NCBI GenBank assembly: GCA_035765775.1
Contig: DASTWV010000059.1
Coordinates: forward strand, 353,555-417,554
DNA: 64,000 nucleotides
Direction of reading: 5' to 3'
Origin: Actinomycetota bacterium
GTDB lineage: Bacteria > Actinomycetota > CADDZG01 > JAHWKV01 > JAOPZY01
Both the position numbers and the translations under genes were made by a program. Within the stretch, counting starts at the first letter, position 1, and each line of letters starts with the position of its first letter. Positions 1 through 48,245 of the stretch are shown piece by piece. Under the pieces are notes generated by a model. The model ran no database searches. It was given only the letters and a program-made list of their open reading frames with translations, and was not told where the DNA came from.

Positions 1-107
1 ACTCTGGCAGGGCGAGGGATCCACCGGAAGGGAGCATGGCCGCCAACTTGGCAGGGGCGTGTCGCAGGGTTTCGTACAGGGGGCGCCTCAGGTCCTGGGT
101 GCTCATG
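1..107 (-). CDS. Possible 5' part of a gene running off the window (N-terminus MSTQDLRRPLYETLRHAPAKLAAM...)
   Basis: Minus-strand ATG near position 107 with a GAGGAG-like RBS 8 nt upstream; the open frame continues to the window edge. Only about 35 codons are visible and I recognise no homology. Confidence 0.25.
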
Positions 108-619
108 TGCGCTCCTCGTCTCGTCGTGGGAACAAGTCTTCCGGTTGTAGTGTCGGATTCACGCGGAGCGTCGCCAAGGGCTCACCGGCCTATCTTCCTC
201 TCGTCCCTAGCGCGTACCGTGGCGGGACTCAAATGAAGTAGGCGGCAGGGCCGAACGGCCCGTGCCGACCGGGGCCCCGTGGCCCCCAAGCCGCTGCGCG
301 CGGTCCAATTGAACCGCACAAAGTTGGAGCGAATGCGTCATGCAGGGACTCCAACGTCATGACGAAACTCTTAGTGCAATCAGCGACAACCATCGAGGGC
401 CACGAAGGTTCGTAGCAGAGGGTTCGTTGCTAGAGGGCTTCTAACCGCACCAAGCCGAGGGGCGCACCGTGCAATGCGGCACCCCGAGGCGCAGCACGAG
501 GAGCTTCCGCTTGGGCCCCCCGATAAAGGCAAACCCAGGGCGACCTGGGGACGCAAAGTCATGGATCTCCCCTTCGTCTTATTCGAGAGGAGATCGCCAG
601 ACCGCCGAAGGAGAGCGCC

Positions 620-1549
620 GTGAAGACTCTGACCATCCGTGCCCTGGTAGCCGCCGGCACACTGAGCACGATCGTTCTTGCGGGTGTCGCTCCCGCTTCT
701 GCCAGCCCCTCGGAGGAATCGTGCTTCTTCGCAGCGATCAACTCCGAGCGCACCGCCGCCGGGCTGAGTGCAGTGACCAACAGCGGAGCGCTGGCGACCA
801 TGGCCGAGGCCTGGTCAGGCCAGCTGGCCGCGGCCGGCTCGCTGTCGCACAATCCCAGCCTCACCAACCAGGCCCCGTCCGACTGGCAGTACCTCGGCGA
901 GAACGTCGGAGAGGGCCCGGACTGCTCTTCACTCGTCACCGCCTTCTTCAACTCGCCCGAACACAAGGCCAACATCTTGCAGGTCCACTACACCGAGGTT
1001 GGCATCGGCGTGGTTGACGGGGCAGGCGGAACCATCTGGGTGACCGAGGACTTCATGGGCACGAGCGCACCAGCGCCCGCTCAGCCCGCGCCAGCCGCGG
1101 TCGGCAGCCCGGCGCCCTCGACCCCGGTCCGCACGGCTGCGGACGCCCCGGCGCCCTCGACCCCGGCGCCCTCGACGCCGGTGCGCACGCCTGCGGCAGC
1201 CCCGGCGCCCTCGACCCCGGCGGCCTCGACCCCGGCGCAGGGCCCGGTCCACACGCCTGCGCCCGCCCGGGCCGCCATCCATGGCAAGGCTGCCGCCCCG
1301 GTGCCGGCCACCGATCCCGGCCCCGCCGCGACGGCCCCGGCTCCCGCCGCCAGCACCCCCGCCCCGGTGGTCACCCCCGCCCCGACGGCCACGCCCGTCG
1401 TCGACCCTGAGCCCTCGACGGTTGCCACGATGCCCACCGTTGCGCCACACGCCCTTCGCGGCTTGTCGACCAGCTACCGGCCGGGCAGGAAGAACGCCAT
1501 TCAGAGGGCGGCCGCGATTGCCACCACCCTTCTCCGCCACCTCTTCTAA
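620..1549 (+). CDS. Secreted CAP/SCP/PR-1-domain protein with a Pro/Ala/Thr-rich repetitive C-terminal tail
   Basis: N-terminal signal peptide (MKTLTIRALVAAGTLSTIVLAGVAPASA). CAP-domain motifs (GH..QLAAAGSLSHNP; YLGENVGEG; HKANIL; TEVGIGVV; WVTEDF). The tail is made of APSTP/VRTPAAAP repeats. Confidence 0.8.
   Translation: MKTLTIRALVAAGTLSTIVLAGVAPASASPSEESCFFAAINSERTAAGLSAVTNSGALATMAEAWSGQLAAAGSLSHNPSLTNQAPSDWQYLGENVGEGPDCSSLVTAFFNSPEHKANILQVHYTEVGIGVVDGAGGTIWVTEDFMGTSAPAPAQPAPAAVGSPAPSTPVRTAADAPAPSTPAPSTPVRTPAAAPAPSTPAASTPAQGPVHTPAPARAAIHGKAAAPVPATDPGPAATAPAPAASTPAPVVTPAPTATPVVDPEPSTVATMPTVAPHALRGLSTSYRPGRKNAIQRAAAIATTLLRHLF
1110..1250 (+). repeat. Tandem ~18-19-bp repeats (ccggcgccctcgaccccgg, about 5 copies) encoding the APSTP-repeat linker of the CAP protein
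   Basis: Direct tandem repetition visible in the sequence around 1100-1250. It encodes ...APSTPVRTAADAPAPSTPAPSTPVRTPAAAPAPSTPAASTP... Confidence 0.7.
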
Positions 1550-1653
1550 CTCCATCTGGCGCCGAGCAGGGTCCGCGGCGGCGGTGGTCACGCTCCGCTC
1601 GCCGGCAAACCGCATTGATCCCGGTCCACGGTGCCCTCTGAGGGGACCAAGCG

Positions 1654-3290
1654 GCTTAGCCTGGATCCACCGATAGCCTGACCCCACGGCGGCAGGTGCC
1701 ACCGTTGGGAGGCGAGGTGATGATCTGGGCCCCGGTCGCCGAGTTGGACCGGCGTCACGTCGACGTTTGGGGTGACCTGAAGGCCCACAACTGAGCCAAT
1801 TTCATGCCCAGGGCACGGCTGTGGCCCGGAACCTGTCCGGTGGGGCGGGTTGCACCTGCGGTGATCCGGCTCAGGCGAGCAGGGCAATGCCCCGCAGGCG
1901 GTCGAGGCCGGCGGAGAACTCCTCGGCCCAGGGCCAGCCCGACGGCAGGTGCAGGTGCCATCGCCGTGACGAGCGGGTAAGGCGTCCCGGCAGGGTGAGG
2001 AAGCGCCGGCGGATGCTCTGGGCGACCACGGGGCCGACGTGGCCCAGGCCGAGCGAGGCGACCCAGCGGATCAGGTTGTGGGCCAGGGAGGTGATCACCA
2101 GCCAGGCCGAATTGGCCGAGAAGTTGCCCGAGGGGCAGTGGCTGAGCCCCGATCCCTCCTTGAGGTCCCGGATGGCGAGCTCGACGACGGCGTGGCCCCG
2201 GTGCTCGACGCCCAGGGCGACGGCCTCCCCCGGGCGGTTGGTGACGAAGGCGTGGTGGCGCCAGTCAGGCCACAGCTCGGCCTGGTCGCCGATCAGCCGG
2301 GTGCCGCGCACGATCAGGCGGTCACCCTTGTAGCTGGTCTCGGCCAGCTGCGCCTCGCCCATGGCGGTGTAGTCGATGCTCACCCACGATTCCTCGGGGA
2401 TCGTGGCGCTGGCAGCCTGACCGCGGAGTTGGACGGCACCGTGATCGAGTAGCCGATGCGGTGGCGGCGGCACGCCTTGACGAACCTCTCGGACCAGAAC
2501 GCCGAGTCCGCCCGTAGCCGGAGCTCCCCGCTGGAGCCCGCCCGCCGTGCTCGGGCGACGGTCTCGTCCGGGAAGCGCACGCAGCCCCGGGCGCTGGCGG
2601 CCGAGCCTTTGCGCTGGCGCACGTGCAGCACCTCACCGGTCTCGGCCCGGGTGGCCAGTAGCGGGTGGTAGCCGAGCCGGCGGGTGTAGCCGTAGGCGGC
2701 ACCTTGCTTGTGGTAGCCGTGCACCTCGCAGATGGTGGAGTCGAAGTCCAGCATCAGCACCTCCCCGCCCGGTCCCGCCCCCGCCGCCCAGGCCCGGGCA
2801 AGCAGCTTCCCGGTCACCTTGTCGAGCTGGCGAACGTGTCCGAAGCTGAGAGCGCAGGAAGGTGCCGAGCGTCGAGGGGGCCATCACCCGGTGCCCGAGC
2901 ACCGAGGCCGTCGAGGCGCAGCGCAGCACGTCGGCGTCGTCGATCGAGTCGCCACCGGCCAGCATCGAGTGCACCAGGGTGAGCACCTTGCGCCCCGGCA
3001 GGGCAGCCCCGGGGCGATCCCCAAGCTCAACGGTGGCATGCACCAGCTCTTCGATGCCCAGGTGCTGGGCCAAGGTGGCGGGCAGGACCAGCCCGGCGTT
3101 GGCCACCGCGTGGTCGTCGTCGAAGATCACCGACGCTCGGTCGAGGCTGTGGGAAGATGTCACCTGAAAAGTGCCTTTCTGAGTAGGGCGGATGTCGTTT
3201 TCGCAGACACCATTCTCCCTGGTCAGAGGGCATTTTTCGCGTCTATCCGGGCCTCAGATCGGCCGGTTCATCGTGGATCCAGGCTTAGGT
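1654..3290 (-). mobile_element. Degenerate IS1380-family insertion sequence (~1.63 kb) with imperfect terminal inverted repeats
   Basis: Terminal inverted repeats GTGGATCCAGGCT(T/A)AG at ~3274-3290 and its reverse complement at ~1654-1670 (13/13 identical, then partial). They bracket a transposase reading frame that is split into three pieces. Confidence 0.7.
1871..3163 (-). pseudogene. IS1380-family DDE transposase, disrupted by two frameshifts (three consecutive ORF fragments in different frames)
   Basis: ORF 2633..3163 is the N-terminal part (MTSSHSLDRASVIFDDDHAVANAGLVLPATLAQHLG...). ORF 2380..2817 is the core (MLDFDSTICEVHGYHKQGAAYGYTRRLGYHPLLATRAETGEVLHVRQRKGSA, an IS1380-like DDE signature). 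ORF 1871..2473 is the C-terminal part. The three fragments overlap and are in different frames. Confidence 0.75.
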
Positions 3291-3745
3291 CCCGGCAGCA
3301 TGCACTGGTAGGAACCTCCCAGCTGGGCGCATGGGGCACTCCGCGGCCAGCCCGCCGGCTCCACAAGCCATCACCGGCGCACCGCGCGGTGCCCGGTCCT
3401 CCAGAAGCCTCCGCTACCGCTTCTGTGCATCTTCTTCTGCTGGCCGACCCCTAGTCCGGGCGAACGATCCGGGCCTACTGCATTCGCGCCGTCCGGCGTG
3501 GCCCCAAATGGCTCCCCGCGTCCGCCTTCATGTACCAGATTTATTGGTCACTGTGCGGCTGTTCAGACGATCCCATGAGCCCGATATTTGAAGTAGGAAA
3601 CAAGCACCGCCAAAGGCAAACCCTCGGAAACGAGGCGACGCAAAGCTATAGGGCCGTCGATCACAGCGATCACGGCAGCCAGCTACCGGATGCCCGAGAA
3701 ATCCCTCGAGAGTCCGTCCATGTCGCCTCAAGAAAGGAGACGACG

Positions 3746-4603
3746 ATGCGAAGGACCCAGGGCATTCTCACCTCTCTGATTGGTGCTGGATTTGCCATGA
3801 CCCTCACCTTCGGTGCCGCGCCAGCCCTGGCGGCCGGCGCCCCGGCCTCCACCCCCGCTCCGGACGCCGCCAGCACCAACTTCGCCTGGGTCAACTCGCT
3901 CCGGGCGGCCGGCGGTCTGGCGGCGCTGCAGAACCAGCCTTGGGCGCAGCAGGTTGCCCAGGCCCACTCGGACGACATGGCCAACCAGGACCAGCTGTAC
4001 CACAACATGACCGGGTACATGGACGTGGCGCACAGCGCCCTGCACGCTTCGTACCTGGGCGAGAACGTCGGCGAGGGCACAACTCTCGACTTTGTCCAGT
4101 CGCTGCTGAAGGCCAGCCCGGAGCACTACGCCAACATCATGAACCCCCGCTTCAACTATCTGGGCGTCGCTGTCACCATCGATGAAAACGGCCAGGTATG
4201 GGTCACTGAAGACTTCTCCGAGATTGATGGCGGCTCCCCCGCCCCGGCCCCGGCCGCCCGCCCGGCTGCAGCCATCAAGCCGGCAGTGGCACCAGCCCCC
4301 AAGCCGGTGGCGCCCCCTGCCCCCAAGCCGGTCGTCGCCCCTGCCCCTGTCATTGCCCCGGCTCCGGTGTTCCCGGTCCCCACCGTCGCAGCACCGACCC
4401 CGCCCCCGGCTGCCCCGGCTTCTGAGCACGCGGGGGTCACCACGATGACCATTGCCCACCATGGCCAAGCGGATGCCGCCGCCAGCCGCACCGGCGCAAG
4501 TAACCCCCAGGGTGGCCTCCTGTACGCCGGGCTCCTGGCCGCCGGCTGCCTGATGGCCCTGGGCGGGGGCTTCAAGATCTTCACCGTGTTCTCCCGCAGG
4601 TAG
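3746..4603 (+). CDS. Secreted CAP/SCP/PR-1-domain protein (paralog) with a Pro/Ala-rich linker and a C-terminal hydrophobic anchor
   Basis: ATG at 3746 preceded by AAGGAGA. Signal peptide MRRTQGILTSLIGAGFAMTLTFGAAPALAAG. CAP motifs (SDDMANQDQLYHN; YLGENVGEG; PEHYANIM; YLGVAVT; WVTEDF). PAPKPV repeats, then ...NPQGGLLYAGLLAAGCLMALGGGFKIFTVFSRR. Confidence 0.8.
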   Translation: MRRTQGILTSLIGAGFAMTLTFGAAPALAAGAPASTPAPDAASTNFAWVNSLRAAGGLAALQNQPWAQQVAQAHSDDMANQDQLYHNMTGYMDVAHSALHASYLGENVGEGTTLDFVQSLLKASPEHYANIMNPRFNYLGVAVTIDENGQVWVTEDFSEIDGGSPAPAPAARPAAAIKPAVAPAPKPVAPPAPKPVVAPAPVIAPAPVFPVPTVAAPTPPPAAPASEHAGVTTMTIAHHGQADAAASRTGASNPQGGLLYAGLLAAGCLMALGGGFKIFTVFSRR

Positions 4604-4779
4604 CGGGACCAGCCTCCCCGATGCTTGGTCGATAAAACGCTCCGGAGCCTCGGGCCCTAGGGTCCGGGGCTCCGGTAATTTTGTCCCCAACCGCCCTAGG
4701 GAAAACAGGGGTTACCCCACCACCTACGTGCTCGGGTCAGGAGAGCACGTAGATGCGAAAGAGGGACCCGGCTGCGGAA

Positions 4780-5466
4780 TTATCGGTGCCGCTTTCTCAT
4801 GACCTTCGGCCCGTCCTCAGTCATCTGCAAAATGCCTTGGCGCACGGCGATCGCCGCCGCCTCGAGTTTCGAGTGGGCCTCCAGCTTCGTCAAGATGGCT
4901 TGGACATGTTTGCGTACGGTGTTGACGCTCAAGAACAATGCCTCAGCAATTGCCGCGTTGTGCAAGCCTCGGGCCATGAGTTCCAGCACCTCGAGTTCCC
5001 GGTCGGTCAAGCCGTATGACACTTGCTGATGCTCCCGGCGCAGCCGGGGGAGGAGCCGCATGAGCAGCTCGGGCGGGATGAGGGTCTCCCCCACCGCGGC
5101 AGCCCGGACGGCGGAGAGGGCGTCCTCCACCAAACCCACCTTGGAGATGAAGCCGGAGCACCCGACCTCGATGGCATGGACCAACGCGTTGTCGTCGGCG
5201 TACGCGGTCAGGATGACCACTTTTGTCGCCGGGCACTCGGCCCTGATGTCGGCCGCGGCATCGATGCCGGCGCCATCGGGCAGCTGGTTGTCCATTAGCA
5301 CCACATCGGGGTGGAACCGGGCGGCCATATGTCGGGCGTCCGCCGCGGTAGCCGCAGCGCCGACGACCTCGAGATCGCTCTGGTCCCGGAAGACCCGGAT
5401 GAGGGTCTGCGCGAACATCTGGTGGTCGTCAACAACGAGCACCTTGATTACGCCCTGCTCGCTCAT
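4780..5466 (-). CDS. NarL/LuxR-family two-component response regulator (REC + HTH_LuxR)
   Basis: VLVVDDHQMF...VVLMDNQLPDGAG...ILTAYADD...FISK (REC domain); LTDRELEVLELMARGLHNAAIAEALFLSVNTVRKHV (LuxR HTH). Likely start is MSEQG at 5466; the ORF-track N-terminal extension is probably not translated. Confidence 0.85.
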   Translation of the reverse strand: MSEQGVIKVLVVDDHQMFAQTLIRVFRDQSDLEVVGAAATAADARHMAARFHPDVVLMDNQLPDGAGIDAAADIRAECPATKVVILTAYADDNALVHAIEVGCSGFISKVGLVEDALSAVRAAAVGETLIPPELLMRLLPRLRREHQQVSYGLTDRELEVLELMARGLHNAAIAEALFLSVNTVRKHVQAILTKLEAHSKLEAAAIAVRQGILQMTEDGPKVMRKRHR

Positions 5467-6433
5467 CAATCGATCCCCTCCGTTCGTCGCATTCTGGTGC
5501 ATCCCCGCTCGCCGGCGGTACTCCATGGCGCATGGGCGACGGCGACCGTCACGGCAGACCAGCGGTCAGCGGAGGCCCTGTAGCAGGCGCATCCCCCATC
5601 CAGGGTTCCTTCTCGCGCAAGCACCGGCTGCGCATATCCGGACATAGTAGACTACCTAGCCGCAAGCACGACGGATCCAGCTGCGGTAGTCCCACCTCAG
5701 GGCGACGCCGCCCGGCGGCGGACACGAGGGCGGGGGTTCCCCCCCATGGCGCAGGAGCGGATCTCCCTCCCGGAGGGAGCCGGGCACGTACCTGCGATCC
5801 GCCCTGAGTACTGGTGGCGCACCAGATGGGCAAAGGTGTCATCGAACGCCACCGGCGTTTCGGGATCGGTGGCTGCACAGGAATAGAACGGGGCGATCCA
5901 CAGCAGCACACCCTGGGCGGTCATGTTGCTGGATATAGACCTCTTCAACCCGACGATTGGGTCGATGGAACATTCATGTGCCTGGACGTACCTGTGAGGA
6001 TGACCTGGCATGATGAGTTCAGCATATTATCAGGTCATCAACCAGTTTGAGCGCAGCGCCGAGGACGTCCGCCAGCACCTCCCTGACCGGCCGGCGTCGG
6101 ATCGGAGGCCATGGTCCCCCGCCAGGACGGCAACGCCGACCGGGACCGCACTGAACGCCGAGGGAGCGACAGCACGTAGCGAAGCCAGAACGCCGCCAGC
6201 ACGGCGTCCACGGACGCCACGTCGGACACCGCGCAGACTGCGCCCCAGGCTGCCTAGAATGCGGGCCGGAGCTGGTGCCGGGCCGGATGCCGGGCCCCAC
6301 CACCAGACAGGGGGACGCGAGCCCGGTCTGTAGGCCCGGGCTCGGCATCCACAGCGCCAGGTCCCAGAACGTCGAGCGCGTCCGCCTCGGCGTGGCCGCC
6401 CTCGCCGCATCATGGCCCCCGCCTGCCGCCCGG

Positions 6434-8659
6434 CTACCCCGGCCCGCCCATCCAGAGGGGTTGGCCGAGGGACGGGGCGGCCGGTGCAGATGGTCGGTGC
6501 TGGACCACCAGTTCGGTCACGTCTTGGAAGACGCCGGTCAGGGCCGGCGTGGCACCGGGGTTCGCGTCCAGCTCCACCCGGCACGAGAGCCGCCGTTGAG
6601 TGCCGTCGGGCCGGACGAAGCGGCAGGCGAAGTCGACCACCCCGCCCCGGGCGGCGCTATCAATGGCGCTGACCACCGCCGGGAGGTCATCGGGGTGGAC
6701 GATGCTCAAGAAGTCATCGAAGGACGCGGCTGTACCCACGGGAAATCCGGCGATCCGGCGCAGCTCGTCGGAGAACCAGCCAGCGCCCCGCTCCGGTTCC
6801 CAGCGGCAGCTCCCGGCGTGGGTCATCGCCTCGGTCAAGTCTAGGTGCCGGGTCCGCTCCCGGTACGCTGCCTCGACGCGTTGGCGGTCCAGCACCCGGG
6901 CCAGCTCGCTGGCAAAGCCGTCCAGCACCACCAGCAATGACTCGTCGGGCATCTCAGACTGCATCGAGAAAAACTCAAGCACGCCGAGAGTCCGGCCCTC
7001 GAAGGCGAGCGGGATCCCAAAACCGGCCTGCAGGCCCGCCGCCACCGCCTGCGCTGAGCGGGCGAGCCGGGGGTCGAGTTCCAGATTGGCCATCAGCACG
7101 CGTTCCCCCGCCTCCAGCGTCCTGCCCGGCAAGCCCACCCCGGGGCCGAAACGCAGCCCGGTCGACGCCCTTCGGAAGGCGTCGAACTGCGCCCCGGCGG
7201 CCAGGTGCCAGATTGCGGTGCTGACCAGCTCTCCGTCGCCACGCGCGTCGCCACCCGTGTCCCCACCTGCTGGGCCGACCGCTGGCTCACCGGTGAGCAG
7301 GCAGGCGTGGCCCACGGGCCAGCCGGTGTAGAAGCAGATGCGCTCCAGCGCCAGGTGCAGGGCCGCCTCGACGCTGCCCGCCGAACCCGCTTCGATGGCG
7401 GTTCGCAGGAGCGCGATCTGGGTGTTCTTCTCGCCTAGCCCGACCAGCGGAGGGCCCAGATCCCCCCCTCCGGGAGCTCCGACATAGCGGGGGTACATCC
7501 CGCTGGGCGGCGGCGGCGCCGGTCGGCCCAGAAGGTAGCCCTGGCCCCAGATGACACCCAGGGTACGCAGGGCGCCGGCCTGGGCGAGGGTCTCGATACC
7601 CTCGGCCACGAGGGTTGCCCGGGTCTCGCCGGCAAACGAGATCAGCGCGGCGGCCAGCGCCCGGGCCTTCTCATCCACGGTGACCCGCTGGACGATGCTG
7701 ATGTCCAGCTTGATGATGTCCGGCTGCAGGCGCAGGATGTGCCGGAAGCTGGCGTAGCCCGCCCCGGCGTCGTCCACCGCCACCCGCGCACCCCGCGCCC
7801 GGAGTGGCCGCAGCGCCGCCATCAGCTCGTCGTAGTCCTCGATGGGGTCGTGCTCGGTGACCTCGATCACGAGGCGCTCGGGCGCGATCTCGTCCAGCAG
7901 CGTTCGGGTCCGGGGCTCCAGGATGGCCCCGGGGGATATATTAACCGAGATGAACAGTTCGGGAGACAGTGCATGGGCGGAGACCACCGCCAGCGACACC
8001 GCGGCGCGCTCGAAGGCCTCCCCCAAGCCCACCGACGCCGCCTCGGCCAGCCAGACGTCTGGGCCCCGGCGGGGCTCCCCCTCCACCCGAAGCAGGGCTT
8101 CCGCGCCCACTGCCCAGCCAGCACGCAGGTCCACGATCGGCTGGAGCTGGACCCTCGACCAGCCCTCCTGCAGCGCCTTGGTGACCCGCCCGATCTGCTG
8201 TGACCGTCGTTCCGTTTCGATTGTCTGGGCCTGGGGCATCCCGGCCAGTGACTCGATGAGGACCTCGGCGACCTCGGCGGACACCGACCCCTGGTGCCGA
8301 GCACCCCGGTGGATGGCCGCCAGGATCTGCTCGGCACTGGCACCCTTCACCAGGTAGCTCCGGGCGCCAGCGCCCAGCATCGCCAGGATGGTGCGCCGGT
8401 CCGCGTAGGCGGTCAGAGCGATGATGTGGGTACTGGGGCACAGGCGGGAGATCTGTGCCCCCGCCTGCACCCCCCCGCCCGGCATCCGGACGTCCAGCAA
8501 CGCTACGTCGGGCTGATGGAGCAGGGCCAGATCGACCGCCTCCGTGGCGTTGACCGCGGTGGCCACCAGAACCAGGCTCAGGTCGCTTGCCAGCACCGCC
8601 CTGAGGGCAGCGAGCACGATCGGATCGTCATCGGCGACGAGGACCCGGATGGCACTCAC
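6434..8659 (-). CDS. Multidomain c-di-GMP phosphodiesterase: REC - EAL - GAF - PAS
   Basis: GTG start at 8659 (VSAIRVLVADDDP...) overlaps the upstream gene's stop (GTGA). REC: DVALLDVRMPGGG...IIALTAYADR. EAL: QPIVDLRAG...EVTEHD...DDAGAGYASF...KLDISIV...AEGIETLAQ...GQGYLLGRP, with catalytic residues present. GAF: LGVLEFFSMQ. PAS: FLSIVHPDD...FACRFVRPDGTQRRL...FQDVTE. Confidence 0.85.
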   Translation of the reverse strand: MSAIRVLVADDDPIVLAALRAVLASDLSLVLVATAVNATEAVDLALLHQPDVALLDVRMPGGGVQAGAQISRLCPSTHIIALTAYADRRTILAMLGAGARSYLVKGASAEQILAAIHRGARHQGSVSAEVAEVLIESLAGMPQAQTIETERRSQQIGRVTKALQEGWSRVQLQPIVDLRAGWAVGAEALLRVEGEPRRGPDVWLAEAASVGLGEAFERAAVSLAVVSAHALSPELFISVNISPGAILEPRTRTLLDEIAPERLVIEVTEHDPIEDYDELMAALRPLRARGARVAVDDAGAGYASFRHILRLQPDIIKLDISIVQRVTVDEKARALAAALISFAGETRATLVAEGIETLAQAGALRTLGVIWGQGYLLGRPAPPPPSGMYPRYVGAPGGGDLGPPLVGLGEKNTQIALLRTAIEAGSAGSVEAALHLALERICFYTGWPVGHACLLTGEPAVGPAGGDTGGDARGDGELVSTAIWHLAAGAQFDAFRRASTGLRFGPGVGLPGRTLEAGERVLMANLELDPRLARSAQAVAAGLQAGFGIPLAFEGRTLGVLEFFSMQSEMPDESLLVVLDGFASELARVLDRQRVEAAYRERTRHLDLTEAMTHAGSCRWEPERGAGWFSDELRRIAGFPVGTAASFDDFLSIVHPDDLPAVVSAIDSAARGGVVDFACRFVRPDGTQRRLSCRVELDANPGATPALTGVFQDVTELVVQHRPSAPAAPSLGQPLWMGGPG

Positions 8660-9834
8660 GCCGGGGCAGCGCGGGGAATTCGGGTGGGAACCCAGCAGGC
8701 GACCGTGGTTCCCGCCCCGGGTGAGGAAGTGATTTCCAGGCGCCCCCCACACACCTCGGCCCGATCCCGCATGGAAGTGAACCCGTAGTGGCCCGGCGAT
8801 TCCGGCGCGGCTTCCGCCTCGAAGCCGGTGCCGTCATCGGCGATGACCAGCCCGAGGCCCTGTCCCTGCTCGCGCAGGCCGATGGTCACGTGGCGCGCCC
8901 GGGCGTGCTTAGCGACGTTGACCAGGGCCTCCTGGGCCACCCGGTAGAGGACGACCAGGATCTCAGGCGGCGGGGCGGTGCCCACCTCGATGGCCACCGT
9001 CGCGGCAAAGTCGGCCTCGCGGCCCAGGATGGCGCCCAGCTCCTCCAGGCTGCCGGCCAGGCCGTCGAGATCCGGAGGGGCGGGGCGCAGCACGAACAGC
9101 ATCCGGCGGAGCCGCCGGATGGCAGTCTGCACGGCGGCCTGAAGCTCGTCCAACTCCTGGAGCTGGTCCTGCCCGTTAAGGGTCATCCGCAGCACACCCA
9201 GCCGCAGCGCCACCGCCGCCATCACCTGGACCGAGTCGTCATGGATGTCGGCGGCGACACGCCGCGACTCCTCCTCCTGGGCCGAGACCAGCCGGCGGAC
9301 CAGCTCGGCCCGCTGGGCCTCCACTGCCCGCAGCTCACGTGCCAAATCCTGGCGGGCGCTGTCCATGGCCTCGGCGTCCGCTCCCCGGTCCAGGGCTTTG
9401 GCGTTCAGGAGGGCCACGGGCTCCTGGTGGTAGTCGTCCGGGTCCCCTCCTTGGGTCGGCAGAGGCCCGCGGCGCAGGGCGGCCTCCACGGACTGCAGGA
9501 TTTCCATGGGGCCGGTGGCCTTGGTGAGAATGCCCGAATAGCTGAGATTTCCGGCTAGCCGAGCCACCTCCTCCGTGGAGTCGGTCGCGGAGTAGAACAG
9601 GAATGGGGTGGCGGCGGTCTCGGCCCGCGCCCGCAGGGCGCGCAGGAGGCCGTAGCCGTCGAGTGTCGGCATGAGGATGTCGCTGATCACGAGGTCAGGG
9701 GCCTCGGCGGCCACCCGTTCGAGCGCTTCGGCGCCGTCGGTGGCCCAGACCACCAAGTGCCCAGCCGACGGCAGGATGCTGCCCAGCAGGGCCCGGACTT
9801 GCCGGGTATCGTCCACCACCAGGATGGTCCCCAC
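8656..9834 (-). CDS. Hybrid histidine kinase with no sensor domain: N-terminal REC + HisKA_3 + HATPase_c
   Basis: Likely GTG start at 9834 (VGTILVVDDTRQ...ISDILMPTLDGYGL...FLFYSA, REC domain). HisKA_3 H-box: EESRRVAADIHDDSVQ. HATPase: LYRVAQEALVNVAKHA...ADDGTGF...GFTSMRDRAE...GAGTTV. The ORF-track N-terminal extension (to 10395) is GC-frame noise. Confidence 0.8.
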   Translation of the reverse strand: MGTILVVDDTRQVRALLGSILPSAGHLVVWATDGAEALERVAAEAPDLVISDILMPTLDGYGLLRALRARAETAATPFLFYSATDSTEEVARLAGNLSYSGILTKATGPMEILQSVEAALRRGPLPTQGGDPDDYHQEPVALLNAKALDRGADAEAMDSARQDLARELRAVEAQRAELVRRLVSAQEEESRRVAADIHDDSVQVMAAVALRLGVLRMTLNGQDQLQELDELQAAVQTAIRRLRRMLFVLRPAPPDLDGLAGSLEELGAILGREADFAATVAIEVGTAPPPEILVVLYRVAQEALVNVAKHARARHVTIGLREQGQGLGLVIADDGTGFEAEAAPESPGHYGFTSMRDRAEVCGGRLEITSSPGAGTTVACWVPTRIPRAAPA

Positions 9835-36371: not shown

Positions 36372-36531
36372 GGAGGTGATGATGCCTCAGAGTTGCCGCT
36401 CCGGTGGTGAGGCTCCGATTATTGGATGAAAATCACGCGAGGCGCGTGATTTTGATCCAAAAATGCTCACCGGCACAGCAACGGGGCATTGGCCGCCCCC
36501 AACAACGCTCAGACTCGCGCCTGAGCGCTCT

Positions 36532-36884
36532 TGGAGGCGCCGGGACTTGAACCCGGGTCGACACGGCTCCCACTTGGGGCATCTACGGGCGTAGCCAACT
36601 TTTTTGTCTCAGCCCGGCAGGTGCTGCTGGCTGGCTTGCCGGTGCCCAGCCCGGTTGGATTGTCCCCCGGCGCTCACCGGACGGGGGCGCTCAGGGTCAG
36701 CCTGCTGCACGACGCCCCATCCCGGGCCGCAGGCCCTCCCGGGTGGAACGCCCGCCGATATAACGGCGGGTTATCGCTTAGGCAGCGACGTTTCGGTTTA
36801 GTGTTCCAGGCAGTTTTACGAGGTACCCGGACCTCGGCCCGCTTCCACCAAACGCGATACCGGCCTCGAAACCAATTCGCCCCC
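36532..36884 (-). ncRNA. ssrA: tmRNA (ssrA), ~353 nt, immediately downstream of smpB
   Basis: The minus-strand transcript begins GGGGGCGAAUUGGUUUCGAGGCCGG...CCGAGGUCCGGGUACCUCGUAAAACUGCC and ends with the tRNA-Ala-like T-arm/acceptor GGUUCAAGUCCCGGCGCCUCCA. The acceptor stem has a G3:U wobble. The internal tag reading frame ends ...GUCGCUGCCUAA (V-A-A-stop). Confidence 0.85.
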
Positions 36885-47850: not shown

Positions 47851-48245
47851 GTCGCCCGGCTGACCTGGTCTTTGGCCCCACATTCGCCTGCTGGCCGGCC
47901 CCGGGTCCATCCCGGGCGCCCGGCAGGACTTACACCTAAACCGCACCATGCTCAGCACCCCCCTCAGCGAGGAGACGCCTTACGTGGGTCCTTTCGCCTG
48001 CGGCTGGCCTGGACTGAGGACCGGCGGTGTTGGGACACCGCCCGCCCCGCAACCACAGCCCGGACGACCCTTTCGGGTCCAGTATATGGCGAGGGGGCCA
48101 CAGAGTTTATGGGCTTCAAGACCTTCGGGGCTCCCGGGACCTCCTACAACCTTCCGGTACGGGCCAGCCCGGATCAGGCCCGCCGGTATGCTGACTTCGT
48201 TCGTCCGCCCGCCCGTCGTGGGCCCAACGAAAGGGTGAGCGCCCT

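Follow-up and report, generated by a model that had tools for sequence, protein, structure and literature searches.

Putative c-di-GMP-I riboswitches precede two paralogous CAP-domain genes of an uncultured soil actinobacterium

In Firmicutes, c-di-GMP riboswitches control surface proteins such as the adhesins and pili of C. difficile and a collagen adhesin of B. thuringiensis, and the proteins so controlled are LPXTG or pilin proteins that are handled by sortases or the pilus machinery. The c-di-GMP-I riboswitches (RF01051, clan CL00126), including Vc2 of V. cholerae and Cd1 of C. difficile, have two hairpins (one of them GNRA-capped), nucleotides G20 and A47, and a position in the 5' leader of the regulated gene, on the strand of that gene. 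The two aptamers described here share these features and match at full length, above the gathering score, but differ from the known examples in being found in uncultured Actinomycetota before genes for CAP-domain proteins, and in that control apparently relies on the Shine-Dalgarno (SD) sequence and is translational rather than terminator-based, with two platform designs adjacent to each other. As in the Firmicutes systems, a second-messenger riboswitch would directly gate an exported, envelope-attached protein; unlike the Firmicutes proteins, however, those encoded here combine a CAP domain with a Pro-rich spacer that ends in a transmembrane (TM) or an amphipathic helix.

The DNA analysed was a 64-kb window from an uncultured soil actinobacterium (Actinomycetota lineage), and all coordinates are window positions (Table 1). 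We put at roughly three in four the probability that the locus consists of two old, paralogous genes for extracytoplasmic proteins of the CAP/PR-1 fold, which form independent units with a c-di-GMP-I (GEMM-I) riboswitch each. The two open reading frames of the preliminary description, both on the + strand with an IS1380 element in between, were present as given there, and its CAP assignment was confirmed by PF00188 matches in both. Its shared YLGENVGEG and WVTEDF motifs agree with CAP cores that are 39% identical over 119 aa, its tandem DNA repeats in the Pro-rich stalks with arrays reported by Tandem Repeats Finder (TRF) in both genes, and its signal peptides with N-terminal hydrophobic segments that fit the Sec type by hydropathy and inspection. 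Its view of a duplicated surface-protein locus stands only in part. That is, there are two CAP paralogues, but at this identity they represent old, distinct subfamilies with their own orthologues and leader classes, and none of the orthologous loci with sufficient flanking sequence (L083, L106, L107, L109, and L110) has an adjoining second CAP gene.

Table 1. Features of the CAP locus and its surroundings (window positions; aa, amino acids)
Feature	Position	Strand	Remarks
PAS-GGDEF-EAL gene, N-terminal 5' end	1-106	-	c-di-GMP turnover enzyme, divergently transcribed; remainder left of window
Aptamer 1, c-di-GMP-I clan (GEMM-I)	519-610	+	Gene 1 5' leader; RF03167
Expression platform 1	563-619	+	Anti-SD in 5' strand of aptamer 1 second hairpin
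CAP gene 1	620-1549	+	309 aa, GTG start; PF00188 50.0 bits (cutoff 21.1)
Gene 1 signal peptide (putative)	620-703 (aa 1-28)	+	Hydropathy/inspection; hydrophobic segment ends ASA/S
Gene 1 CAP domain	731-1057 (~aa 38-146)	+	Conserved Cys35/Cys102 pair
Gene 1 Pro/Ala/Thr/Ser-rich linker	1058-1489 (~aa 147-290)	+
Gene 1 linker-coding tandem repeats	1108-1397	+	APSTP-type; TRF
Gene 1 conserved C-terminal amphipathic helix	1490-1546 (aa 291-309)	+
IS1380-family insertion sequence	1655-3288	-	Including target duplications; element proper 1660-3283 (1624 bp)
Gene 2 promoter-proximal region (putative)	3500-3604	+	Conserved in orthologues: ..ACCAG..TGCGGCTGT..CCCGATAT..
Aptamer 2, c-di-GMP-I (GEMM-I)	3605-3691	+	Gene 2 5' leader; RF01051
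Expression platform 2	3692-3745	+	Small conserved hairpin, then anti-SD segment X' GUCGCCUC (3722-3729)
CAP gene 2	3746-4603	+	285 aa, ATG start; PF00188 48.5 bits (cutoff 21.1)
Gene 2 signal peptide (putative)	3746-3832 (aa 1-29)	+	Hydropathy/inspection; hydrophobic segment ends ALA/A
Gene 2 CAP domain	3890-4216 (~aa 49-157)	+
Gene 2 Pro/Ala-rich linker	4217-4501 (~aa 158-252)	+
Gene 2 linker-coding tandem repeats	4236-4347	+	PAPKPV-type; TRF
Gene 2 NPQGG	4502-4516 (aa 253-257)	+
Gene 2 TM helix (predicted)	4517-4591 (aa 258-282)	+	LLYAGLLAAGCLMALGGGFKIFTVF, then SRR end; hydropathy and homology only
Terminator-like GC-rich hairpin	4642-4675	+	15-bp stem, T-rich tail TAATTTTGTC
Signalling genes right of CAP pair	4780-8752	-
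Response regulator (RR) with GerE/LuxR HTH	4780-5526	-
RR-EAL-GAF-PAS	6434-8752	-	c-di-GMP phosphodiesterase-type

Aptamer 1 is best described by the c-di-GMP-I-GGC model (RF03167; 68.1 bits with a gathering threshold of 59; E 5e-15; aligned over the full model), as are the gene-1-type leaders of relatives (60-63 bits), and shows a GCGA tetraloop hairpin and the G 5' of the P1a GC pair (G20). Aptamer 2 scores 64.5 bits on RF01051 (gathering score 35) and 57.4 bits on RF03167, with a GAAA tetraloop hairpin, G20, and A47; the orthologous leaders L083 and L004 reach 80 bits. The consensus of RF03167 differs from that of RF01051 at position 47 (GCGAAG vs. GCAAAG by cmscan; numbering C46 A47 A48 A49 G50 as in PMC7288161), where aptamer 1 reads GC-AAA-G, i.e., A47, unlike the G47 of the RF03167 consensus. 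Because position 47 is A, not G, in every aptamer found here, both aptamers would be classed as canonical c-di-GMP-I rather than GGC variants by this criterion. A counterpoint to the c-di-GMP reading is that aptamer 1 scores best on the GGC-variant model, yet has A at the variant-defining position. The riboswitch before each gene, the most informative feature of the locus, was absent from the preliminary description.

Two partners are available to the anti-SD of platform 1 (AUCUCCCCUUCG, 565-576), namely the 3' strand of its own hairpin (589-595) and the SD region (CGAAGGAGAG, 606-615) that holds the SD of gene 1 (AAGGAG, 608-613), 6 nt ahead of the GTG; the anti-SD:SD duplex has an energy of -12.0 kcal/mol vs. 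-14.4 kcal/mol for pairing within the hairpin. The orthologous leaders L035, L066, L077, and L079 follow the same plan, their anti-SD and SD being perfectly complementary over 8-9 bp. Platform 2 is built differently: X' matches the reverse complement of aptamer 2 nucleotides GAGGCGAC (3632-3639) exactly and has the SD region GGAGACGAC as its alternative partner, the SD of gene 2 being AAAGGAG (3732-3738) before the ATG at 3746. In orthologues, both strands have changed and the 8-bp X:X' complementarity is nonetheless preserved (GGAGCGAC/GUCGCUCC and GGGGCGAC/GUCGUCCC); when each platform was shuffled 2000 times, the observed duplex energy was reached by 0 to 115 of the shuffles. Upstream of aptamer 2, the segment conserved in a MAFFT alignment of the 200 nt preceding the aptamer (window, L106, L107, L109, and L110) follows the IS end at a distance of over 200 nt and may represent the promoter region of gene 2; a scan for a consensus sigma-70 promoter gave no match.

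Since both SD sequences take part in alternative pairings with aptamer nucleotides, and since terminators are absent from the two leaders, control of both genes would be translational. Ligand binding to leader 1 would free the SD and, because the anti-SD belongs to an aptamer helix, we slightly favor gene 1 being ON with ligand; OFF is also a possible reading, as the closing helix of the aptamer overlaps the first SD nucleotides. In leader 2, where the anti-SD pairs with either aptamer nucleotides or the SD, ligand would leave the anti-SD on the SD, and we give even odds to gene 2 being OFF with ligand. Hence, the two genes are possibly under opposite ligand logic. Forcing the aptamer:anti-SD helix of leader 2 in ViennaRNA gave a structure 4-9 kcal/mol less stable than the SD-hairpin fold and, therefore, OFF logic would need kinetic control, or may be wrong.

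Among 80 related loci from metagenomes, a c-di-GMP-I-clan aptamer was found in 54, in each case upstream of the gene and in its orientation; from the end of the aptamer to the estimated gene start, the median distance is about 85 nt (54 aptamers). The aptamer-bearing loci include 34 of the DPVxxAFDYL-tail subfamily, 7 TM-anchored, and 5-6 with an amphipathic tail, and gene-2-type leaders fetched separately had the aptamer in seven of seven cases. Only 9 of the 26 loci without an aptamer are short of upstream sequence; it was not found in the 17 with enough of it, among them the whole 'WRQAA'-tail subfamily, or in Streptomyces and Kitasatospora homologues, and thus the predicted aptamer-CAP link is clade- and subfamily-specific. 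Elsewhere in these loci (about 330 kb) and in the remainder of the 64-kb window, the search gave no further c-di-GMP aptamer hit. While the components were already known, the link between them appears to be new, and no paper describing it was found in the literature searched.

Enzymes that make or degrade c-di-GMP are also encoded on both sides of the CAP pair. On the left, the PAS-GGDEF-EAL gene continues beyond the window in Logan contig L002, which carries it as a gene for 681 aa (L002 2-2044, - strand); it ends at window position 106 and has Pfam PAS, GGDEF (145.8 bits), and EAL (155.4 bits) domains. Beyond the RR-EAL-GAF-PAS gene on the right lie, among others, genes for a hybrid kinase and an RR-Hpt protein. 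In L106, the orthologous locus closest to this one, CAP, GerE-RR, and kinase-RR genes come in an identical order and are followed by an RR-HD_5 (HD-GYP-type) gene.

The AF2 model of the gene 2 product has pLDDT values of 75-83 in the CAP core and below 50 in the linker, with C-terminal helices at 254-271 and 274-284. Its top Foldseek matches were 4IFA, 4D53 (TM 0.69, target-length normalised), 4H0A, GAPR-1, and P14a; that is, the alpha-beta-alpha CAP fold is shared with a B. anthracis SCP-domain protein (4IFA; profile E-value 3e-8) and with eukaryotic GAPR-1 and PR-1 P14a, and 4IFA, Borrelia BB0689 (4D53), and S. aureus SAV1118 (4H0A) matched with probability 1.0. The CAP motifs HN.., GEN, and (S)P.H are conserved, but the solved structures are only 13-20% identical to the window proteins and have no Pro/Ala spacer or C-terminal anchor modules.

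The linker of gene 1 is encoded by arrays at 1108-1235 (period 54, 2.4 copies, 90% matches), 1146-1238 (period 15), 1307-1366, and 1354-1397, and its tail, ..G(v/i)l..vl.aI.s.fsHL(F/L) with a hydrophobic moment of about 1.6, is common to orthologues P0023, P0033-P0045, and L035/L044/L077/L079. Hydropathy revealed no C-terminal hydrophobic or TM segment in this protein, which would be exported via its Sec signal peptide and, with its longer spacer and amphipathic helix end, may be released or peripherally attached. The arrays of gene 2 are at 4236-4255 (period 6) and 4295-4347 (period 24, 2.2 copies, 90% matches). Its MRRT start is kept in orthologues; the GenBank model (P0001) begins at M18 and therefore misses the signal peptide. 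The terminator-like hairpin sits between gene 2 and the convergent GerE response-regulator gene.

It is unlikely, in our view, that the aptamers are real GEMM-I folds for another ligand, be it 3',3'-cGAMP or whatever the 'GGC' variant class binds. Several relatives score best on RF03167 as aptamer 1 does, and of 54 aptamers compared at the G20 equivalent (the two of the window plus 52 of related loci), 15 have A, a change that in Vc2 admits cGAMP (the G20A mutant; PMC7288161), but both window aptamers carry the canonical c-di-GMP contacts G20 and A47, aptamer 2 scores well on the canonical model, and the flanking enzymes are of GGDEF/EAL types. Still less probable is a decaying locus without present function, in which IS insertion and polar effects silenced one or both genes. 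The IS1380 remnant reported between the CAP genes is indeed there, 106 nt past the gene 1 stop codon and 316 nt ahead of aptamer 2, as a single copy in the window, and side-by-side CAP genes were not seen in other loci. It resembles its family in a DDE transposase (PF13701, DDE_Tnp_1_4), CC-starting inverted repeats that are intact (11 bp, CCTGGATCCAC, 1660-1670 and 3273-3283), and a target duplication of 5 bp in direct orientation (CTTAG at 1655-1659 and 3284-3288). The degraded part, however, is the IS itself: minus-strand ORFs 2633-3163, 2380-2817, and 1871-2473 cover positions 3-98, 114-244, and 247-419 of NF033539, a model for IS1380 transposases, and represent one transposase split by two frameshifts (frames 2->0->2 in three-frame translation), and because of these two interruptions there is, unlike in the family, no full-length transposase as assembled. 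Logan contigs L001 and L002 both end within the element. Neither CAP ORF is truncated, and the N- and C-termini of both are conserved; the two aptamers and their platforms are likewise intact, and the conserved region ahead of aptamer 2 is on the downstream side of the IS. The element would thus have landed between the gene 1 stop codon and the gene 2 promoter region, duplicating 5 bp, and later gained its frameshifts, leaving both CAP units apparently intact.

Turning from regulation to the proteins, the gene 2 product ends as previously described, in NPQGG-LLYAGLLAAGCLMALGGGFKIFTVF-SRR, but the sortase-like sorting signal proposed for this end did not hold up, and we consider it hardly credible that gene 2, perhaps with gene 1, encodes a substrate that a class B/E-like sortase links covalently to peptidoglycan through a non-canonical NPQGG. 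With a short motif, some 25 hydrophobic aa, and a basic end, the gene 2 product does have the three-part appearance of a sorting signal; in orthologues, the helix is often preceded by a small residue (G/A), and the sequence is AANTG in one of them and QESTG in another. NPQGG, however, has no Thr, which is required for the acyl-enzyme step, and in 10 gene 2 orthologues its position is occupied by ANPGA, ANTGA, ANQGA, ANKGA, STGAT, GRMAT, DKTAT, KPAAA, SRTGL, and SAGAF, without a conserved pentapeptide or Thr. NCBIfam sorting-signal models gave no match to the CAP tails even at E<=10, the sortase signature TLxTC is absent from all frames of the window, and gene 1 has no hydrophobic tail. What is conserved is the TM helix with its basic end (..LGLGy.lTRLlPGR), which would be unusual for a segment that is cleaved off and, for this reason, we regard membrane anchoring in type I topology as most likely for the gene 2 product. 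That is, it would be exported by its Sec signal peptide and kept in the membrane by the C-terminal helix, with the CAP domain held off the membrane, through the wall, by a Pro/Ala spacer that would be disordered and about 95 residues long. A more serious alternative, though one we find doubtful, concerns function only and is compatible with riboswitch regulation: the CAP proteins could be peptidoglycan-associated scaffolds of growth or division rather than adhesins or matrix proteins, with c-di-GMP tuning wall remodelling. The model for such a role is DalA (RSP_1200) of Rhodobacter sphaeroides, a septum-localised, CAP-related lipoprotein of the divisome whose binding to peptidoglycan is non-covalent (PMC10470522). 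Gene 2 matches the DalA model (NF052539) weakly, at 33 bits, a relative (P0048) has CAP fused to a PG_binding_1 domain, and the spacers are long enough to span a Gram-positive wall. Nevertheless, the match is far under the cutoff of 200, the neighbourhood holds no division or wall-synthesis genes, and DalA is a Gram-negative outer-membrane lipoprotein, whereas the window proteins come from another phylum, lack a lipobox, and differ in anchoring mode.

Returning to two riboswitch-controlled CAP units, the proteins would most likely help to remodel the cell surface or wall in a c-di-GMP-dependent manner, through adhesion/matrix formation or as peptidoglycan-associated scaffolding. The riboswitch link would connect the poorly understood CAP proteins to a lifestyle signal, c-di-GMP.

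Both CAP genes in this stretch are headed, on the gene strand, by an aptamer that the preliminary description had overlooked. In the Rfam scan of the window, these two members of clan CL00126 aligned to their covariance models from position 1 to the end, with the aptamer of the first gene (aptamer 1, gene 1) ending 9 nt before the start codon and that of the second gene (aptamer 2, gene 2) ending 55 nt before it. Under the numbering defined by the contact nucleotides C46 A47 A48 A49 G50 (PMC7288161), both aptamers carry G20, located 5' of the closing GC pair of the first hairpin, and A47 (they read AAAG-GC and GC-AAA-G). Model score, contact nucleotides and the cis position in a 5' leader with an expression platform all fit, and the two elements are predicted c-di-GMP riboswitches.

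Features of the CAP locus and RNA elements of the window
Feature	Positions	Strand	Details
PAS-GGDEF-EAL gene	1-106	-	divergent from gene 1; continued at 2-2044 of the Logan contig L002
Imperfect direct repeat	407-437	+	GGTTCGTAGCAGAGG / GTTCGTTGCTAGAGG; TRF period 14, 2.1 copies
Aptamer 1	519-610	+	RF03167, 68.1 bits (gathering score 59)
CAP gene 1	620-1549	+	309 aa; PF00188, 50.0 bits (gathering cutoff 21.1)
Target duplication	1655-1659 and 3284-3288		CTTAG, perfect 5-bp direct repeat flanking the IS
IS1380 element	1660-3283		11-bp terminal inverted repeats CCTGGATCCAC / GTGGATCCAGG
Ms_IGR-7 match	3166-3282	+	RF02469, 53.9 bits (gathering score 45)
Conserved upstream sequence of gene 2	about 3500-3604		
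Aptamer 2	3605-3690	+	RF01051, 64.5 bits (gathering score 35)
Aptamer 2 strand complementary to platform	3632-3639		GAGGCGAC
Leader 2 platform segment	3722-3729		GUCGCCUC
CAP gene 2	3746-4603	+	285 aa; PF00188, 48.5 bits (gathering cutoff 21.1)
RR-EAL-GAF-PAS gene	6434-8752		
tmRNA gene	36531-36884	-	RF00023, 112 bits
raiA RNA motif	47851-48068	-	RF03072, 113.6 bits (gathering score 101.3)

Alternatively, the aptamers might belong to the 'GGC' variants, whose defining feature and ligand we deduced from the Rfam consensus and the numbering of PMC7288161. The core difference noted between the RF03167 and RF01051 consensus sequences (cmscan) is G vs. A at position 47, and since every aptamer found has A at this position, the aptamers look canonical rather than GGC variants, whichever model scores best. 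Rfam models were used for aptamer scoring throughout; a MAFFT aptamer alignment had put two sequences out of register in their 3' halves. Fifteen of the 54 aptamers examined have A at the counterpart of G20 (caaGA-GCaca in place of caaAG-GCaca), namely those of the related loci L019, L020, L023, L037, L042, L046, L048, L049, L057, L060-L062, L064, L066 and L068. The G20A change allows the Vc2 aptamer to bind 3',3'-cGAMP (PMC7288161), and some of the CAP genes behind the A20 aptamers may accordingly answer to other dinucleotides or to a wider range of them.

The association of predicted c-di-GMP riboswitches with CAP genes is conserved in uncultured soil Actinomycetota. We took 80 related loci from metagenome contigs using an alignment of 27 homologues and scanned them against Rfam at gathering thresholds, and 54 were found to carry a c-di-GMP-I-clan aptamer. 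All 54 aptamers are upstream of the CAP match and share its strand, the median distance from aptamer end to estimated start being about 85 nt, and Rfam detected no c-di-GMP aptamer anywhere else in the 80 loci; among the 26 aptamer-negative loci, nine have <250 nt of sequence upstream of the estimated start. By C-terminal type, aptamers accompany 34 loci with the DPVxxAFDYL tail (three loci are without, all short of upstream sequence), seven TM-anchored ones (one without), 5-6 with an amphipathic tail (none without) and none of the 'WRQAA' type with TM plus cytoplasmic tail (about 11 without). Seven more gene-2-type leaders, fetched separately (L083, L003, L106, L107, L109, L110/L111), all have the aptamer. 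It is absent from Streptomyces and Kitasatospora homologues, and a genome search with a narrower alignment returned only one close genome (L083), the others being distant (Streptomyces and the like) and without aptamer. Our searches of the available literature returned nothing linking c-di-GMP riboswitches to CAP, YkwD or SCP genes and no description of c-di-GMP riboswitches in Actinobacteria. The components are all of known kinds; what is new, as far as could be checked, is the riboswitch-CAP association, together with the possibly reciprocal control discussed below.

The subfamilies behind these counts have distinctive ends. In the biggest riboswitch-linked one (34 loci; L010, L015-L020, L022-L026, L030, L032, L033, L037, L038 and others), the conserved tail reads ..DPVAxAFDYLxxVTxL and the platform is about 90 nt long, highly conserved, and closed by a terminal hairpin CCGGCG...CGCCGG-AGG that half-buries the ribosome-binding sequence (SD). 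The 'WRQAA' subfamily (L005-L009, L011-L014, L024, L027) has a TM segment followed by a cytoplasmic tail that is longer, basic and rich in Ser and finishes in ..SPSWRQAA, and is without c-di-GMP aptamer although its upstream sequence is ample. In the CAP homologues of L080, L081 and L072 (two with aptamers), C-terminal repeats of the type GYRFVAADGGVFxFGdAxFYGS replace the Pro-rich spacer and anchor.

The genomic setting also involves c-di-GMP: with the PAS-GGDEF-EAL gene on one side and the RR-EAL-GAF-PAS gene, 1.8 kb past gene 2, on the other, the CAP pair is bracketed by c-di-GMP turnover genes, and in the orthologous locus closest to this one, the equivalent position is taken by an RR-HD_5 (HD-GYP-type) gene. 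A consensus scan found no sigma-70-like promoter, as expected of high-GC Actinomycetota (base composition across the region is 63-82% G+C). Upstream of gene-2-type aptamers (this window, L106, L107, L109 and L110), the conserved motifs are GTGCAT..ACCAG, TGCGGCTGT and, some 30 nt 5' of the aptamer, CCCGATAT; they probably serve as sites for a promoter and/or a regulator. In the window and in L106, an adjoining gene encodes a GerE-type response regulator. The imperfect direct repeat, about 80 nt 5' of aptamer 1 in the 412-nt gap that separates the riboswitch from the GGDEF-EAL gene, may be a binding site for a regulator.

Both leaders contain alternative pairings that involve the SD and are kept in orthologues, and in neither of them does a terminator-like hairpin intervene between aptamer and start codon; from these observations we infer translational control. 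The designs differ. The SD of leader 1 and of its orthologues adjoins the 3' end of the aptamer, and the anti-SD is within the 5' strand of the second aptamer hairpin. The two pairings open to the anti-SD are of similar strength, in the window -12.0 kcal/mol with the real SD vs. -14.4 kcal/mol with its own partner (-18.8 vs. -20.2 in the related locus L035, where GGACCUCC/GGAGGUCC form a perfect 8-mer). Ligand-stabilised folding of the aptamer would then sequester the anti-SD and leave the SD accessible, making leader 1 an ON switch; the closing helix of the aptamer overlaps the first bases of the SD, so the switch may instead be OFF. In leader 2 and its orthologues, the 8-nt platform segment is the exact complement of a strand inside the aptamer and can alternatively pair with the SD region GGAGACGAC. 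This complementarity is kept in orthologues despite changes on both sides (GGAGCGAC/GUCGCUCC; GGGGCGAC/GUCGUCCC), and the observed duplex energy was attained by 0 to 115 of 2000 shuffles per leader-2-type platform. Ligand binding would here keep the aptamer strand from pairing with the anti-SD, which would stay on the SD, i.e., an OFF switch, a direction that is tentative because the forced aptamer:anti-SD helix is 4-9 kcal/mol worse than the MFE, the SD-hairpin fold (ViennaRNA).

Combining the ON reading of leader 1 with the OFF reading of leader 2 gives opposite logic, in which rising c-di-GMP would turn gene 1, encoding a released or peripheral protein, on and gene 2, encoding a membrane-anchored one, off; on a wider view, uncultured soil Actinomycetota would have a dedicated CAP regulon defined by c-di-GMP-I riboswitches. 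We hold this combined reading to be doubtful as it stands, at a rough probability of one in four.

The proteins under this putative control are much as the preliminary description had them. The two open reading frames are present, the Pfam scan it had proposed places both in the CAP family with PF00188 matches well over threshold, they are 39% identical across the CAP core, and Tandem Repeats Finder confirms DNA-level repeats within the Pro-rich segments of both. The CAP fold is supported for gene 2 by a profile match and by Foldseek of its AlphaFold2 model. A PDB search with gene 2 as single query (phmmer) gave zero matches and a profile from 27 homologues was required, which matches 4IFA (E 3e-8), GAPR-1 and BB0689. 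The model is an alpha-beta-alpha sandwich (helices 39-55, 65-81, 89-99 and 114-131; strands 101-111, 136-145 and 151-160; pLDDT 75-83), whose best Foldseek matches are all CAP structures (4IFA, 4D53, 4H0A, GAPR-1 and P14a; TM-score 0.69 to 4D53, normalised by target length). Both proteins have the H(N), G-E-N and P-E-H motifs, corresponding in gene 2 to H86, E106, E126 and H127, candidate counterparts of the His/Glu cavity residues of the eukaryotic CAP tetrad; in the family alignment H86, H127 and E106 are invariant or near-invariant, and E126 gives way to Pro or Leu in most orthologues of gene 2.

Regarding closer affiliation, the two proteins score 45.7 and 41.4 bits against the YkwD model TIGR02909 (cutoff 171) and gene 2 scores 33.1 bits against the DalA model NF052539 (cutoff 200), values so far under the cutoffs that the window proteins are relatives, not members, of these families; no lipoprotein Cys follows the gene 2 signal peptide. 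Despite this score, DalA is a useful functional analogue: this envelope protein, a divisome-associated lipoprotein related to CAP, binds to peptidoglycan without a covalent link (PMC10470522). As envelope proteins whose synthesis would follow c-di-GMP, the window proteins may take part in remodelling the surface or wall. Gene models need care at the 5' end: orthologue comparison gives MRRT, with the SD AAAGGAG 7 nt upstream, as the conserved start of gene 2, while the GenBank model (protein record P0001, 268 aa) begins at Met18 and so lacks the signal peptide. For the orthologue P0005, the JGI model starts 16 codons too early (L107 1936 vs. about 1984), running into the platform just 3' of the aptamer.

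The ends of the two proteins bear on how they are displayed. Gene 2 ends in NPQGG, 25 hydrophobic residues (aa 258-282) and SRR, which had been likened to a sortase sorting signal. A hydrophobic segment with a basic tail, one feature of sorting signals, is indeed present in gene 2 (gene 1 is without it), but it is also common to ordinary C-terminal TM anchors. LPXTG-type signals, NPQTN and LAXTG variants included, further have a pentapeptide with Thr in fourth place, right in front of the hydrophobic segment. Across 10 orthologues of gene 2 (44-55% identity), neither the pentapeptide nor a Thr is conserved at the NPQGG site (ANPGA, ANTGA, ANQGA, STGAT, GRMAT, DKTAT and others), while the helix and basic end are strongly conserved (consensus LLYxxLGLLGAVFALGLGFxxTRLLPGR); none of the NCBIfam sorting-signal models matched any of five tails even at E<=10, and the TLxTC sortase signature is absent from all six frames of the window. 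On the orthologue tail alignment, the tail HMM scan and the sortase motif scan of the window, a sorting signal at NPQGG is rejected. In the AlphaFold2 model a disordered linker leads into a C-terminal helix, and gene 2 is most simply read as having an N-terminal signal peptide that is cleaved off, together with a TM anchor at the C-terminus. The C-terminus of gene 1 is not hydrophobic; its last 19 residues make up an amphipathic helix (hydrophobic moment about 1.6), which the orthologues of gene 1 share (..GVLxxVLxAIxSxFSHLF).

Recent tandem duplication of the CAP pair is ruled out by the 39% identity, by the different subfamilies and leader classes (the genes differ in C-terminal modules as well as leaders), and by adjacency that is not conserved, the two CAP genes not being neighbours in orthologous loci with enough flank. 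Between them is the IS1380 remnant already described, which has transposase fragments, inverted repeats and the CTTAG duplication. The transposase is spread over three overlapping minus-strand ORFs covering positions 3-98, 114-244 and 247-419 of NF033539 (model of 419; 44.5, 119.6 and 100.9 bits), with PF13701 at 72 and 54 bits (cutoff 34.7); as assembled, the frame changes 2->0->2, i.e., two frameshifts and no intact ORF. The inverted repeats with CTTAG on both sides indicate a simple insertion into the intergenic spacer of the CAP genes, 106 nt 3' of the gene 1 stop codon and 316 nt 5' of aptamer 2. The upstream sequence of gene 2 that is kept in orthologues sits 3' of the IS, so the gene 2 control region looks undisturbed. 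There is no second copy of the element within the window; the Logan short-read contigs carrying gene 1 and gene 2 both stop inside it, as expected of a repeated element. An Rfam match to the actinobacterial sRNA Ms_IGR-7 falls wholly inside the IS, adjoining the right inverted repeat, and is best read as the leader/end of the IS, not a free-standing sRNA gene.

In conclusion, the paralogues and the IS insertion of the earlier interpretation hold, unlike its sortase signal. Both the sortase aspect and the IS aspect are ordinary, and the point of interest is the riboswitch-CAP association, with two leaders of different design next to each other. To our knowledge, bacterial CAP/SCP proteins are widespread and almost none has a known role. 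The association would wire several CAP subfamilies directly to c-di-GMP via predicted riboswitches (54/80 related loci), which would place these proteins in the usual territory of this messenger, i.e., surface, matrix and developmental transitions, and it makes a prediction that is simple to test, that reporter fusions should be c-di-GMP-responsive. A further implication is that riboswitches may act as c-di-GMP effectors in Actinomycetota, a phylum whose described effectors are, as far as we know, proteins; if true, this would be the first riboswitch-type c-di-GMP effector described in the phylum, as far as we know. The neighbouring paralogues with different leaders would be a convenient natural pair for comparing ON vs. 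OFF translational control within one aptamer class. Should the opposite-logic reading be true, one messenger would swap which CAP protein the cell surface displays, and the conserved C-terminal tails (..SHLF, DPVxxAFDYL) could be new localisation signals. Finally, the riboswitch link would, if true, provide a first physiological handle on bacterial CAP proteins.
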